64,000 nucleotides of DNA from Candidatus Gottesmanbacteria bacterium UBA5942 (GCA_002430725.1 DJCU01000040.1:15401-79400), one strand, 5' to 3'. Shown: positions 1,413 to 57,539, counted from the first letter of the stretch. Notes: generated from the letters alone by a model not told the origin. Translations and numbers: made by a program.

Positions 1413-1540
1413 CGTATTCCTTCTTGCCGCGTTTTTACGCTATAATAGTCACTAGTTTGTTGCTCAATATTGATAAATACATATTGCCGAGGTGGCCCCT
1501 CAAAGCCACTGGGGCAACAGCATATTGATAAATACATATT

Positions 1541-47437: not shown

Positions 47438-47561
47438 GAGGCTATTATACAGCGTTACTGTAATCCACCTGCGAGGAATGGTACGAAAGAAGTCGCCACA
47501 AGCGCAATTGTCGAGATGACGACAATCACCTTCCAGAATTTTTCGTGTTTTCTAAAAAAGT

Positions 47562-48785
47562 TCATGACGTTATTTTACCAGCTTTTCTGCCGACTTTTAA
47601 TATATCGCCTTTTTTGGGTGATATTGCCTGGTGATAATCGGTTATAAGTTCGTTGTTAAATGCAACCGCCTTTTGTTCGATGAGGCGTTTCGCTTCAGAT
47701 TTGCTTGAAGCAAAACCTGAGGCAAGCACGACATCAGAAAGCGTAGGATTATCGGAAAATGCGCTCAGTGACAACGGTACGAGCTCCGCGTTACCCAAGT
47801 CGCCCTTTTGAAATCGAGTTTCAAATTGTTTCTGTGCGTTTTCGGCATCTTTGTCTGAGTTAAATTGTCGTGTGAGTTCGTACGCAAGTTGCTTTTTGAA
47901 CTTCATAGGGTTTTCCCCTTCCGTCATTTGTTCTTGCATGGCGGTAATGTCGTTGTCAGATATATCAGTGAGTAATGTAAAACATGGAATGATAGCGTCA
48001 TCACCTAATGACATTATTTTGCCATAAAAATCGTTTGGTGCATCGGTAAGCCCAATCGCATTGCCTTCTGTTTTCCCTATTTTCACCCCTTTGGCGTCTG
48101 CAAGAAGTGGTACGGTCATCACGAATTTTTCCCTGCCCTGCATAGCCGATACCAATTGGCGACCTGCAAGCATGTTAAACGATTGATCCGTTCCGCCAAG
48201 TTCAAGATCGACACTCATCGCGACCGAATCATATCCTTGGAGTAGCGGGTACAAAAATTCACGAAGATTTATCGACTCTCCCCGTTTCATGCGCTCCTGG
48301 TACATGTCTCGTTCAATAAGTTGCTGCACCGAAAAATTTTGTGCGATTTCCAAAATATCTACAAGCGTAAGCGAGTTTAGCCAATCACCGTTGTAGAGAA
48401 TTTCTACGGGATTATCGCCATCAAACCGAATTATTTTACTTGCCTGTTTTACGTAGTCCTGTGCATTTGATCGTAGTTCCTCACGGGACATAAATTTTCC
48501 ACGAGCTTTCATCTTGCCCGAAGGGTCTCCTGCCTGGCCAGTCCCATCACCGATTAAAAATATGACATGGTGTCCGAGATCCTGAAATTCTTTCAGCTTT
48601 CTAATCGCTACCGCATGCCCGATATGCAGCTGCGTGCCAGTCGGATCAAAACCCTGGTACAGCCGAAGTTTTTTGCCGCTACGAAGCACTTTTTCAAAGG
48701 CTTCACGATTTGGGTAAATGGTGTCGACACCCCGAGTTAATAAATGATCAATTGCGTCCATAATTTCTCCTTTACTATAGCACAC
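47562..48785 (-). CDS. tyrS: Tyrosine--tRNA ligase with C-terminal S4 domain
   Basis: HIGHAVAIRKL (HIGH), KIGKTEGNAIGL (KMSKS-region equivalent), S4 C-terminus. Confidence 0.95.
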   Translation of the reverse strand: MCYSKGEIMDAIDHLLTRGVDTIYPNREAFEKVLRSGKKLRLYQGFDPTGTQLHIGHAVAIRKLKEFQDLGHHVIFLIGDGTGQAGDPSGKMKARGKFMSREELRSNAQDYVKQASKIIRFDGDNPVEILYNGDWLNSLTLVDILEIAQNFSVQQLIERDMYQERMKRGESINLREFLYPLLQGYDSVAMSVDLELGGTDQSFNMLAGRQLVSAMQGREKFVMTVPLLADAKGVKIGKTEGNAIGLTDAPNDFYGKIMSLGDDAIIPCFTLLTDISDNDITAMQEQMTEGENPMKFKKQLAYELTRQFNSDKDAENAQKQFETRFQKGDLGNAELVPLSLSAFSDNPTLSDVVLASGFASSKSEAKRLIEQKAVAFNNELITDYHQAISPKKGDILKVGRKAGKITS

Positions 48786-48794
48786 CGTTAGTCA

Positions 48795-49901
48795 TTATTC
48801 ATGCCACACGTGTCGTGCCACGCGTGCGACAAGCTGTAGTTTCCGTTTCTGATCACGTACCGTCATATTATTGCCGCGGGCGACAGACGCAAATCCGCAT
48901 TGCGTGCTTATCGCGAGCCGTTCTATCGGAACAAAACGTGCGGCTTCCCGTATACGCGCCACCAGATCTTTTTGCCGTTCGAGTTTGGGTGACTTGGTGG
49001 TTACAAGACCCAATACTACTATTTTATCTTTCGGCACATGACGCAACGGGCTGAAATCGCCCGCGCGCTCACTGTCAAATTCCAACAGCAGCCGATCTAC
49101 GCGCGCACGTTTAAAAACGATATCTGCGATGCGCTCGTATCCTCCTCGAGCCATAAAACGGTTTTTGTCGTTACCGCGGCATATGTGGAGTGACGTTGTG
49201 CCGGAAAATCCCTCTAAGATGTCATTTATCATCGCCACACCTTCGGCAATAAGCGTTTCAGGGTTGAACCCTTTGCCCGCAAACCATTCCCGCTGAACCG
49301 GATCAAGCAGCATGCCAAATTCGGGAGCATCAACCTGTATGTGGGCAACCCCCTGTCGATCCAGTTCCCGCACGCTCTCCTTGAGGTGGTGTGTGACATC
49401 TTTGAGAAACCCAAGTGGTGACGGGTATACCCGGTTAGATATGCCAGGGACAAAGTAGTAACTCATCATAGTCGGGCTTGGAATAGTAATTTTTGTCGGC
49501 ATATCGGTGATTGCCCGCAGGAATGAGAATTCGTCAACCGAGATATCATGAATTTTTTTAAGTTTCCCGACGATGCCTACCGTTACCGGATCGACAATTT
49601 TCTTTCCGTTCATATCAAACCAGATGACGGTGTTTCCCGGGACATTCCATTTAAATCCTTCCATCGCTTTTACAAAATTATGGCAAAATACCGGGCGGCG
49701 CATTTCCCCGTCGGTAACGATATCGACACCGGTCTCTTCCTGTATGGTGACTGCTTCTCTGACCGCCTTGTCTTCTTCCCGAGTGAGATCAGCCGGTGTT
49801 GCTTTTCCCTGCCTCACATTTTCCTGCATCGCAAGCAGTGATGATGGTCGCAGCATACTGCCCACAACATCAGCTCGTATGGGCGCTCGTTTTGTTTTCA
49901 T
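48795..49901 (-). CDS. Core (single-domain) cobalamin-independent methionine synthase, MetE C-terminal-like
   Basis: DVVGSMLRP start typical of the MetE catalytic barrel; Zn ligands retained (H-I-C in GTTSLHICRGN; Cys in ISTQCGFAS); no N-terminal folate-binding barrel. Confidence 0.8.
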   Translation of the reverse strand: MKTKRAPIRADVVGSMLRPSSLLAMQENVRQGKATPADLTREEDKAVREAVTIQEETGVDIVTDGEMRRPVFCHNFVKAMEGFKWNVPGNTVIWFDMNGKKIVDPVTVGIVGKLKKIHDISVDEFSFLRAITDMPTKITIPSPTMMSYYFVPGISNRVYPSPLGFLKDVTHHLKESVRELDRQGVAHIQVDAPEFGMLLDPVQREWFAGKGFNPETLIAEGVAMINDILEGFSGTTSLHICRGNDKNRFMARGGYERIADIVFKRARVDRLLLEFDSERAGDFSPLRHVPKDKIVVLGLVTTKSPKLERQKDLVARIREAARFVPIERLAISTQCGFASVARGNNMTVRDQKRKLQLVARVARHVWHE

Positions 49902-50761
49902 GTTTCCTCCTTCCGGGCAAATGCCCTAAGTGAAATGGGACTAAAATCTAGCACGTGTCCTTTGACAGGATCTCGGTTAATCCGCCGTTTGGACCAAGGC
50001 GAAAGGTTTCTGGGCGGTTCCGCGTCCGTCACCGACCATACCGATACTCCAGGTAGGTGACGCAGCACATCGGAGAATTCCTTCTTTGAAAAAGCAGCAG
50101 TAAATGTCGGCAGAAGAAGCGGCACGATAGACGGTTTCGTAAACCGGAGCCTTTCCTCAAGTGCTGTTAAAAATTCGGGAGACGTATTCCGCTGGTAGTC
50201 TGCAACCAGTAGGCTTCCGCCTGGTTTCGTCAGCCTGAACATTTCAGTCATTGCTTCACGCAGGCGCTCCAGGCTCGACATCTGATGGGTAGAGTTATGG
50301 CTAATCACCAGGTCAAACTGGTTGTCCGGTAATGCAATACGTTCTACCGGTGACTTTACAAATCCCATGCGTCCGAGTATCGACCGGGCGTGAGCTTTTT
50401 GTCGCGCGTGTTGAAGCATCGTGTCATCGCCATCATGTTCCATGACAAATTTTGCGCCCATTTTGGATAGTTCGCGTCCAAGCCTACCTGGGCCCGACAT
50501 GACATCCAACACGTGCATAGAGCGAAGCTTCCGTTTGCCGAACCGGTTCGCTACCTCGCGCGCGAGTAGCCAATCATCGACCGATGCGGGGTAATCACAC
50601 CCCTGAATGTACGTAAGCGCTTCGTCACGCGTGAACATTTCCGCACGTTCGGGTACCCGTGTCCGGAAATCGAGCGCACGTAATCCGAACGGGTCGACAT
50701 TTTTTTGCCTGAGCATGTCAGATCTCATGATTTCTCTCATATATCCCTCACTTTCATACAT
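49898..50761 (-). CDS. Class I SAM-dependent methyltransferase
   Basis: Motif I VLDVMSGPGRLG, motif post-II PGGSLLVADY; stop overlaps (ATGA) the start of the downstream MetE-like gene. Confidence 0.7.
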   Translation of the reverse strand: MYESEGYMREIMRSDMLRQKNVDPFGLRALDFRTRVPERAEMFTRDEALTYIQGCDYPASVDDWLLAREVANRFGKRKLRSMHVLDVMSGPGRLGRELSKMGAKFVMEHDGDDTMLQHARQKAHARSILGRMGFVKSPVERIALPDNQFDLVISHNSTHQMSSLERLREAMTEMFRLTKPGGSLLVADYQRNTSPEFLTALEERLRFTKPSIVPLLLPTFTAAFSKKEFSDVLRHLPGVSVWSVTDAEPPRNLSPWSKRRINRDPVKGHVLDFSPISLRAFARKEET

Positions 50762-50824
50762 AATGTTTATACGTTTTGCATTTCGGGTCGCAGCCCTTTT
50801 GTATACGAAAGGGTTTGCCCGTAT

Positions 50825-50909
50825 GTGCTGAGGGGAGGATTCGAACCTCCGCAGACCTGAAGATCAGCTGTTTTACAGACAGCCGCAGTTGTCCCCTTTG
50901 CTACCTCAG
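50825..50909 (-). tRNA. tRNA-Tyr (anticodon GTA), class II, no encoded CCA
   Basis: Minus-strand sequence GCTGAGG...: anticodon stem GCTGT/ACAGC, loop CTGTAAA giving GTA; long variable arm; T-loop GGTTCGAATCC; discriminator A. Confidence 0.85.
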
Positions 50910-50939
50910 CAATATGTATGTATCAATATGTTGTCGCCA

Positions 50940-51285
50940 CAAAAAACCCCGCCTCCGTCCCCGATAAAAAATCGGGAACAAGGGCGGGGGTTTATCCCAC
51001 GCGGTACCACCTTGCTTCGCTAAAGTAAGTTTTTTCCACAAAAAAACCGACGAGAGGTCGGTTCTACCTTAGCCTCATTTGTGAACTCCGCTTATGGCGA
51101 CATTCACATTCTGCTTTTACGGGCTTACCCGGATTGGTTTACTCCTTGTTCAACCTTTCAGCTCAAGTGAGTATTTCGCAGATAATCTATCGGGAGATCT
51201 TGCACCAACCGTCTCCTCTCTCTTGTCTCAGATTGCCTACTACTTCATCACTTTCAATGCTTTTCCTATTCAATTGTTGATTGAA
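50940..51285 (-). promoter_or_regulatory. Putative T-box riboswitch leader (tRNA-sensing antitermination)
   Basis: Minus strand: promoter TTGACA-17-TACAGT; T-box core AAGGUGGUACCGCG (forward 51000-51013) giving antiterminator AAGG/CCUU + bulge UGGUACC + GCG/CGC; overlapping intrinsic terminator CCCCCGCC...GGCGGGG + U7 (forward 50942-50998). Confidence 0.6.
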
Positions 51286-51344
51286 ACTGTATCACAATTT
51301 GTCATTTTTGTCAATCGCAGTTACAATGGATTTCGTGATACAAA

Positions 51345-57334: not shown

Positions 57335-57417
57335 GTGTTTTCACCTCCTTTCTGCAATATATATCCGCTTAGGCGGGTATTATTGCGCTAGGAAGTGCCT
57401 TAACTCATTTCAGAGCA

Positions 57418-57450
57418 CAAAAAATCCCGCTTTCGCGGGATCCTTGGGTT
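57418..57450 (-). terminator. Intrinsic terminator after rplT
   Basis: Minus strand: atcccgcg-aaa-gcgggat stem followed by TTTTTTGTG. Confidence 0.5.
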
Positions 57451-57539
57451 ATTTTTCTTTTTTCTTACGCGCCCAAAGAACCCCGCTGTAGCGAGGTAAA
57501 GAACGCAAAGAATAATGTGTTAATCATAGTAGAGAAAAA

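Follow-up and report, generated by a model that had tools for sequence, protein, structure and literature searches.

The founding tyrosine-specific transcriptional T-box, the leader of Bacillus subtilis tyrS, was reportedly described by Grundy and Henkin in 1993. It is the closest functional relative of an element that precedes a tRNA-Tyr gene and tyrS on the minus strand of a stretch of 64,000 nucleotides (nt) from Candidatus Gottesmanbacteria bacterium UBA5942 (GCA_002430725.1 DJCU01000040.1:15401-79400; the whole stretch is hereafter the window, and positions are counted from its first letter). Both leaders comprise a Stem I with K-turn, specifier loop and distal platform, a Stem II, a Stem IIA/B, a Stem III, and an antiterminator that competes with a terminator. 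They also share the UAC specifier, the UGGU-A73 pairing and tyrS as a regulated gene. In contrast to the B. subtilis leader, the first gene that would be regulated here is tRNA-Tyr, and the host belongs to the candidate phyla radiation (CPR) and is not a Firmicute. The window leader also contains an extra hairpin between Stem IIA/B and Stem III, and a hairpin with a U-tract, termed T1, within Stem III. A pyrimidine or G follows the specifier where A is usual, and most members of the window family fall below the Rfam gathering score (61-90 bits), so that routine annotation would miss them.

Other described systems share parts of this arrangement. Mixed operons of tRNA and mRNA genes, such as Escherichia coli thrU-tyrU-glyT-thrT-tufB, are co-transcribed and their tRNAs are released by RNase P and 3' processing; however, such operons are not known to be gated by a riboswitch that senses an encoded tRNA. 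The E. coli pheM-pheST system likewise senses the charging of the cognate tRNA and controls a synthetase gene by premature termination, but its sensor is a ribosome translating codon runs and not the direct binding of tRNA by RNA. The listed targets of T-boxes are synthetases, biosynthesis genes, transporters and regulators (PMC7778990; PMC11477304). An initial annotation of the window had remarked that a T-box ahead of a tRNA gene was not known to be described, and no published T-box in that position, or in CPR/Patescibacteria, was found in the open-access literature. The element itself is of a known kind (RF00230); its wiring is a variant for which no description was found, and it is conserved in a CPR lineage. 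A T-box operon led by the tRNA that it senses would represent a new regulatory topology, with the ligand under its own sensor, and raises questions about the sign of the feedback, bootstrapping, and the effect of tRNA processing on the leader and the mRNA. Through this finding, the candidate phyla radiation also gains a well-conserved T-box family.

The reading favoured here, to which we assign a probability of about 75%, is that the T-box gates transcription of the tRNA-Tyr gene along with the methyltransferase, MetE-like and tyrS genes that follow it. The transcription unit is predicted to start near position 51279, downstream of a sigma-70-type promoter (TTGACA-17-(TG)-TACAGT, 51314-51286, minus strand) that had been proposed in the initial annotation. 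This promoter has 10 of 12 matches with the TG extension present, and was the top promoter-like site within the 6.5 kb scanned. It is followed by a leader of about 340 nt, then by tRNA-Tyr 30 nt past the terminator, and by the methyltransferase, core-MetE and tyrS genes, in the order first described. The 590-nt block of promoter, leader and tRNA is 100% identical across four independent assemblies from different samples, which rules out an assembly artefact.

The search of the leader with RF00230 that had been proposed as a check returned a full-length match (model positions 1-219) at 50977-51266 on the minus strand, with a score of 93.8 bits against a gathering score of 93, and an E-value of 3.1e-19. 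The parts of the leader described below lie on the same strand. Stem I (51161-51260) was recovered by the Rfam alignment with the K-turn, specifier loop, AG bulge and distal loop, and its helices covary. At the base of the stem, the K-turn UGA..GAGC flanks the helix AAGUG/CACUU. The specifier loop is made of the strands AUGAAGUA and GAAAUACU, the second forming the 3' side, and the codon UAC (Tyr, 51171-51173) occupies the position assigned to the specifier by Rfam, followed by U and then the helix strand CACUU. The AG bulge AGAGA and the distal loop GGUUGGUGCAAG align with the Rfam consensus AGAGA..GgUUGGUGaaA. Stem II, with its S-turn GAA..AGUA, and Stem IIA/B, CCGGGUAAGCCCGUAA, were placed by the same alignment at 51117-51159. 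The extra hairpin GUGAAUGUCGCC..GCGGAGUUCAC (51081-51107) is an insertion relative to the Rfam model and separates Stem IIA/B from Stem III (51019-51073), in which the outer helix GCUAAGG(UAG)/CUUACUUUAGC encloses T1.

The antiterminator is present at 50979-51014 with the parts that had been read from the sequence at the outset, namely helix A1 (CAAGG/CCUUG), the 7-nt bulge UGGUACC (51009-51003) and helix A2 (GCGUGGG..CCCCCGC). The variable base of the bulge is U, complementary to A73 of the tRNA. The strong competing terminator, T2 (50941-50989), consists of a hairpin at 50989-50947 with a free energy of -35.2 kcal/mol, followed by U6 at 50946-50941. The T2 hairpin incorporates the 3' half of the antiterminator, so that the two structures are mutually exclusive. 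A simple terminator scan missed both T1 and T2. On these features, the assignment of the element as a tyrosine-specific T-box is close to certain.

To the elements named in the initial annotation, the analysis added the T1 hairpin with its U7 inside the leader (51063-51040), which had been missed, as well as the extra conserved hairpin, the CPR host, the non-purine U after the specifier, and a sequence motif in the spacer before the tRNA.

Eighteen distinct homologous leaders from genomes and metagenomes were aligned (alignment A1, not to be confused with antiterminator helix A1). Three genome loci carry homologous T-boxes below the Rfam gathering score, with 90.2 (L002), 79.4 (L001) and 61.4 bits (L004) and E-values of at most 1e-11; no T-box was found by Rfam near tyrS in L003 or L005-L008. 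Metagenome contigs were scanned with a pattern of Stem II and Stem IIA/B, which returned 119 loci, mostly unrelated T-boxes of other specificities. A chimeric contig of low coverage (L142) was left out of the analysis. A subset of the loci forms one family with the window; its members have in common a PBP1a gene in divergent orientation, then promoter, T-box, variable genes, tyrS and recG in this order, and tyrS lies downstream in every family locus that is long enough to show it.

Compensatory changes were present in 32 of the 46 base pairs called by RNAalifold from the 18 leaders, compared with 13-17 in slid controls. Paired cells amounted to 93.6%, against 33-47% when the partners were slid, and none of 500 shuffles reached the observed values. 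Stem I helices 1-4 of the alignment all carry compensatory changes, including helix 4, which flanks the distal platform. The same is true of the extra hairpin (alignment helices 7-8; 8 of 10 pairs) and of the outer helix of Stem III, which reads, for example, GCGAAGG/CCUUCGU in L095. The sequence of Stem IIA/B is invariant across the family, partly by construction, as this sequence served as the search pattern. Antiterminator helix A1 and UGGU are the same in every leader (18/18), and the closing pairs of A2 covary (GC/AU, CG/UA/UG). A T2-type terminator overlaps the 3' half of the antiterminator throughout (18/18), with free energies of -26 to -48 kcal/mol and tracts of U6-U8.

The proposed UAC specifier is invariant in all 18 homologues and is the sole invariant triplet of the specifier loop; the preceding base is A, C or U, and the following base is C, U or G. 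The alternative frames AUA, ACU and CUC were ruled out, since only U-A-C is invariant and the bases on either side vary. The suggested match between the bulge U and a discriminator A was borne out across the family, with UGGU in 18/18 leaders and both the anticodon GUA and A73 in all 10 linked tRNAs. This comparative evidence indicates that the family consists of functional tyrosine-specific T-boxes under purifying selection.

A same-strand tRNA-Tyr(GUA) gene was present within 800 nt after the T-box motif in 10 of the 17 distinct family loci with enough downstream sequence; an eleventh tRNA, in L070, is cut by the contig end. The same scan found no tRNA in that position at any of 67 distinct non-family T-box loci. 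The gap between the U-tract of the terminator and the tRNA is 3 nt in L099, 4 nt in L028 and 11-12 nt in L051 and L040, compared with 30 nt in the window and 65-130 nt in L018, L001 and L049. L080 and L086 have a small open reading frame (ORF) between the T-box and tRNA-Tyr and another ORF after the tRNA, which lies 5 nt past the stop codon of the first ORF and 1-2 nt ahead of the ATG of the second. All ten tRNA-bearing leaders scanned have an upstream promoter matching at 8-12 of 12 positions (10-12 in eight, 8 in L080 and L099), and no sigma-70-like site with at least 9 of 12 matches was found between the T-box motif and the tRNA in the 10 loci. Sites with 8 of 12 matches in this interval in L001 and L028 were rejected, as they fall inside the terminator stems.

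The tRNA is absent after the T-box in L002, L004, L026, L047 and L085. In L095 (approximately 2465-2540), a decayed tRNA-Tyr directly follows the terminator, with the acceptor stem and T arm intact and other sequence in place of the D and anticodon arms; this remnant may be retained as a processing signal or may be a pseudogene, and its presence at the same spot argues that the arrangement is ancestral. This distribution indicates an old arrangement that has been lost repeatedly. The truncated tRNA-Tyr of L070 contains a structured 35-nt insertion between G34 and U35 relative to L099; with the contig ending inside the tRNA, the insertion could be intron-like or an artefact.

Co-transcription of the tRNA with the T-box leader is the most economical reading of these data. 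The recurring layout, the gaps of 3-4 nt, the lack of a promoter in between and the placement of the tRNA between ORFs favour the joint control of tRNA-Tyr and tyrS. The mechanism proposed here follows the standard logic of the T-box family; from it and the layout we infer the co-transcription, a pause at T1, the processing of the transcript and the physiological sense of the circuit. Transcription would start at the sigma-70 promoter, near 51279, and Stem I would capture tRNA-Tyr by base pairing between its UAC specifier and the GUA anticodon, as well as by contact of its platform with the tRNA elbow. RNA polymerase would probably pause or partly terminate at T1. With an uncharged tRNA, the 3' ACCA would pair with the UGGU of the bulge and stabilise the antiterminator, allowing read-through of T2 into the tRNA gene and the mRNA; with a charged tRNA or none, T2 would form and the transcript would end at 50941. 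In the read-through precursor, RNase P and a 3'-processing nuclease would presumably excise the tRNA and thereby separate leader and mRNA. Overall, a shortage of charged tRNA-Tyr would lead to more tRNA-Tyr and more tyrosyl-tRNA synthetase (TyrRS). The claim in the initial annotation that uncharged tRNA-Tyr induces both its own gene and tyrS is favoured by the layout at no fewer than 10 loci and by the short gaps; in the window, the spacer is filled by a motif that could serve the tRNA separately.

T1 lies at 51040-51063, upstream of the antiterminator, and reads AACCGAC-cucuc-GUCGGUU followed by U7 (51046-51040) and then GUGG, to 51036. It is present in all 18 leaders with a stem of 7-8 base pairs and a free energy of -6 to -13 kcal/mol, followed by U5-U9. 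The arms covary in 4 of 5 pairs, with variants such as AACCGAC/GUCGGUU, GUCGGUC/GACCGAU, AUCCCGC/GCGGGAU and AUCAGCC/GGCUGAU; the columns of the U-run are invariant and (G/A)UGG comes next. A GC-rich hairpin leading directly into a U-tract, with both parts conserved, is the build expected of an intrinsic terminator, and within the 64 kb only two compact GC hairpins are followed by at least six U residues, T1 and the apparent attenuator terminator of pheST. No structure that both competes and covaries with T1 was found in the family. Two candidate competitors, a GAGG..CCUC pairing and one between UGUCGC in the extra hairpin and the 5' arm of T1, are, by inspection, not maintained family-wide. 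A short ORF, AUGAGGCUAAGGUAG, that ends at T1 was dismissed as a leader peptide, its AUG being ACG or AAG in many leaders, and the UGG after T1 was dismissed as a second site for the tRNA 3' end, its fourth base not being U. Since the antiterminator and T2 lie downstream and are strictly conserved, T1 cannot terminate all transcripts.

The nearest described parallel is the B. subtilis glyQS T-box, in which programmed RNA polymerase pauses at positions 138, 178 and 207 act as kinetic checkpoints (PMC13001445). Those pauses slow the polymerase upstream of the antiterminator decision, and T1 is placed where it might act likewise; unlike a simple pause site, T1 is a full GC-rich hairpin with U5-U9, and is rather terminator-like. 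By this analogy, T1 is probably a hairpin-stabilised pause or partial terminator that buys time for tRNA binding.

The spacer between T2 and tRNA-Tyr contains a 20-nt motif, CATATTGATACATACATATT (50911-50930, minus strand), which ends at position -1 of the tRNA. In the 64 kb it occurs three times, always abutting a tRNA 5' end or a duplicated 5' fragment, where zero copies are expected by chance. The other copies are at 1521-1540 (plus strand), before tRNA-Leu, and at 1466-1485 (plus strand), before a duplicated 11-nt 5' fragment of tRNA-Leu. In the form CATATTGATA[A/C]ATACATATT, the last base of the motif is position -1 of each of the two tRNA genes of the window. Within it lies TGnTACATA, which resembles an extended -10 site. 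Apart from the window and L018, which has a similar element, no family locus has the motif. Possible roles for it are as a promoter, as a processing signal or as a piece of a recombining cassette. At the tRNA-Leu gene, two copies of a 30-nt unit, the motif plus the initial 11 nt of the tRNA, flank the spacer CCCTCAAAGCCACTGGGGCAACAG. In L018 (5540-5600), the like element and a pseudo 5' fragment of tRNA-Tyr precede tRNA-Tyr.

Several observations weigh against the favoured reading of a T-box that gates the tRNA and the protein genes. The RF00230 score exceeds the gathering score by only 0.8 bits. The base 3' of the specifier is U in the window and C, U or G in the family, where a purine (A) is usual. 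Seven of the 17 family loci have no tRNA, so that the tRNA is not essential to a T-box operon. T1 resembles a functional intrinsic terminator for which no competitor was found, and were it efficient, little transcription would reach the decision point. The spacers of the window and L018 are filled by the motif, whose extended -10-like site is compatible with a dedicated tRNA promoter. This last point leads to an alternative in which tRNA-Tyr is made mainly from its own spacer promoter, within the 20-nt motif and starting at approximately +1 of the tRNA, and the T-box regulates the protein genes only, adding at most a read-through supplement of tRNA-Tyr. The motif abuts both tRNA genes at -1 and occurs nowhere else in the 64 kb, its TGnTA(A/C)ATA resembles the TGaTACAGT of the T-box promoter, and the similar element stands before tRNA-Tyr in L018. 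However, it has no -35 element, its last -10 position is A and not T, and it failed both promoter scans. The tRNA-Val of the same genus lacks it, and a duplicated 5' fragment of a tRNA accompanies it, suggestive of a recombination cassette. Elsewhere in the family there is no room for a promoter, whether in the spacers of 3-12 nt (L099, L028, L040, L051) or where the tRNA sits between ORFs (L080, L086). A separate tRNA promoter is therefore considered unlikely.

The resemblance of T1 to a terminator bears on a different explanation, in which the leader is no longer a switch: T1 would terminate most transcripts constitutively, the leader would persist as a relic or as a short tRNA-binding RNA, and the downstream genes would be expressed by other means. 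T1 is indeed built like the presumed functional attenuator terminator upstream of pheS, and no competing structure covaries with it. Yet 18 diverged leaders show strict conservation, with covariation, of the specifier, the antiterminator with its UGGU, and T2, all of them downstream of T1 or unrelated to it; this calls for selection on transcripts that pass T1, and no alternative promoter is evident; the loss of switching is accordingly regarded as very improbable. The least credible explanation is that the tRNA came to lie beside the T-box as a neutral accident of a recombination hot spot, without regulatory meaning. tRNA genes attract integrations, the cargo between the leader and tyrS differs by locus, the sister genome L003 lacks T-box, tRNA and cargo alike, the window version of the region assembles on short contigs only, and decayed or duplicated tRNA fragments are present. 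Against this, the arrangement persists where PBP1a is only 54-85% identical to that of the window, and the tRNA is always the cognate one, on the same strand and directly after the terminator. Moreover, a gene 3-30 nt past a T-box terminator with no promoter in between would be gated, whatever its origin.

A stronger form of joint control by the T-box is that the gated gene is the only tRNA-Tyr gene of the genome, such that the riboswitch controls the synthesis of its own ligand. This is put forward tentatively, and we consider it somewhat doubtful. If it were true, the self-referential loop would set the ratio of tRNA to synthetase in a minimal genome, its sign would be opposite to the classical stringent control of tRNA genes, and excision of the tRNA would be a built-in punctuation between leader and mRNA, cutting the two apart. 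A second checkpoint, kinetic or by termination and undescribed for T-boxes, would come from T1, and basal read-through would have to bootstrap the loop.

The tRNA-Tyr gene (50826-50910, minus strand) was identified by the Rfam tRNA model (55.4 bits) and by ARAGORN. The tRNA has the anticodon GUA, a long variable arm, a G1-C72 pair and the discriminator A73, and CCA is not encoded. No terminator was found between it and the first ORF in the window sequence. Three tightly packed ORFs follow on the same strand. The first encodes a class I S-adenosylmethionine-dependent methyltransferase (49898-50740) with the ribosome-binding site GAGGGA upstream. The second is a MetE-like gene (48795-49901), whose start overlaps the methyltransferase stop codon by 4 nt; the protein, of 368 amino acids, has the catalytic domain only (PF01717, Meth_synt_2) and is PRK06520-like with a score under the curated cut-off. 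The third is tyrS (47562-48785), which encodes TyrRS and matches TIGR00234 with 337 bits against a cut-off of 114. A 35-codon hydrophobic ORF, MNFFRKHEKFWKVIVVISTIALVATSFVPFLAGGLQ, at 47457-47565 (minus strand) overlaps the stop codon of tyrS (ATGA). There is no terminator between tyrS and recG in the window, and the T-box-controlled transcript may thus run further.

The host belongs to the Patescibacteria group, Microgenomates group, Ca. Gottesmaniibacteriota (CPR). Proteins encoded nearby share 85-97% identity with their counterparts in Candidatus Gottesmanbacteria UBA6580 (L003), including PBP1a (96.9%), RNase III (95.6%) and NusB (94%), and the relatives of the TyrRS among species-representative genomes are CPR metagenome-assembled genomes.

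The genes between the leader and tyrS vary, with the methyltransferase and MetE-like genes in the window and L047 and unrelated ORFs elsewhere. The window version of the region (47562-51330) is present only on contigs of less than 5 kb, whereas in samples of the same types the contigs that carry the flanking genes reach more than 1 Mb; this suggests that the window version is a strain-variable island, that is, a strain-level polymorphism. The TyrRS proteins of L018 and L095 are 43-44% identical to that of the window despite a PBP1a identity of 85%, which suggests that the synthetase gene was replaced while its locus stayed the same. Two TyrRS types, 39-44% identical, occupy the same slot between PBP1a and recG (L018, L095, L026, L040 and others versus the window). 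In L005, two tyrS-like genes lie in tandem with tRNA-Tyr upstream and no T-box.

The corresponding region of L003 (9540-9710) has the same promoter as the window and no T-box, tRNA or cargo. In their place is a short ORF, MRMNTTTKYVYTYYPFKVGLVVVMK, containing 4 Tyr within 6 codons, after which an alternative pairing overlaps a terminator (AACCCCG-cgag-UCGGGG followed by U7) upstream of tyrS. A tyrosine leader-peptide attenuator thus appears to replace the tyrosine T-box at this locus. Among L005-L014, Tyr-rich leader peptides upstream of tyrS were weak only (3 Tyr per 6-residue window, in L013 and L014), leaving L003 as the sole clear case. Sister genomes with either a T-box or an apparent tyrosine leader-peptide attenuator at one locus would represent a natural exchange of sensors for tRNA charging.

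A further attenuator candidate was noted upstream of pheST in the window (57413-57531, minus strand; also L001, 419-537), with an Rfam Phe_leader match of 37.5 bits, weak against the gathering score of 55. An rplT-like gene is followed by a short ORF, MINTLFFAFFTSLQRGSLGA, containing 4 Phe within 5 codons; next come the hairpin GGAUCCCGC-gaaa-GCGGGAU with U6, and then pheS-pheT. The gene order thrS-infC-rpmI-rplT-pheST is the same as in E. coli, and the leader resembles an attenuator of the pheM leader-peptide type, here in a CPR bacterium.

Approximately 7 kb past the end of the 64-kb window, in L136 and L137 (1561-1770), a complete tRNA-Val(CAC) lies inside what is apparently another tRNA, of which the 5' half, GGGGCGCAUAGCUCAGCUGGCUAGA, is upstream of tRNA-Val and the T arm and acceptor 3' strand, ..GUGCGCCCCA, are downstream.

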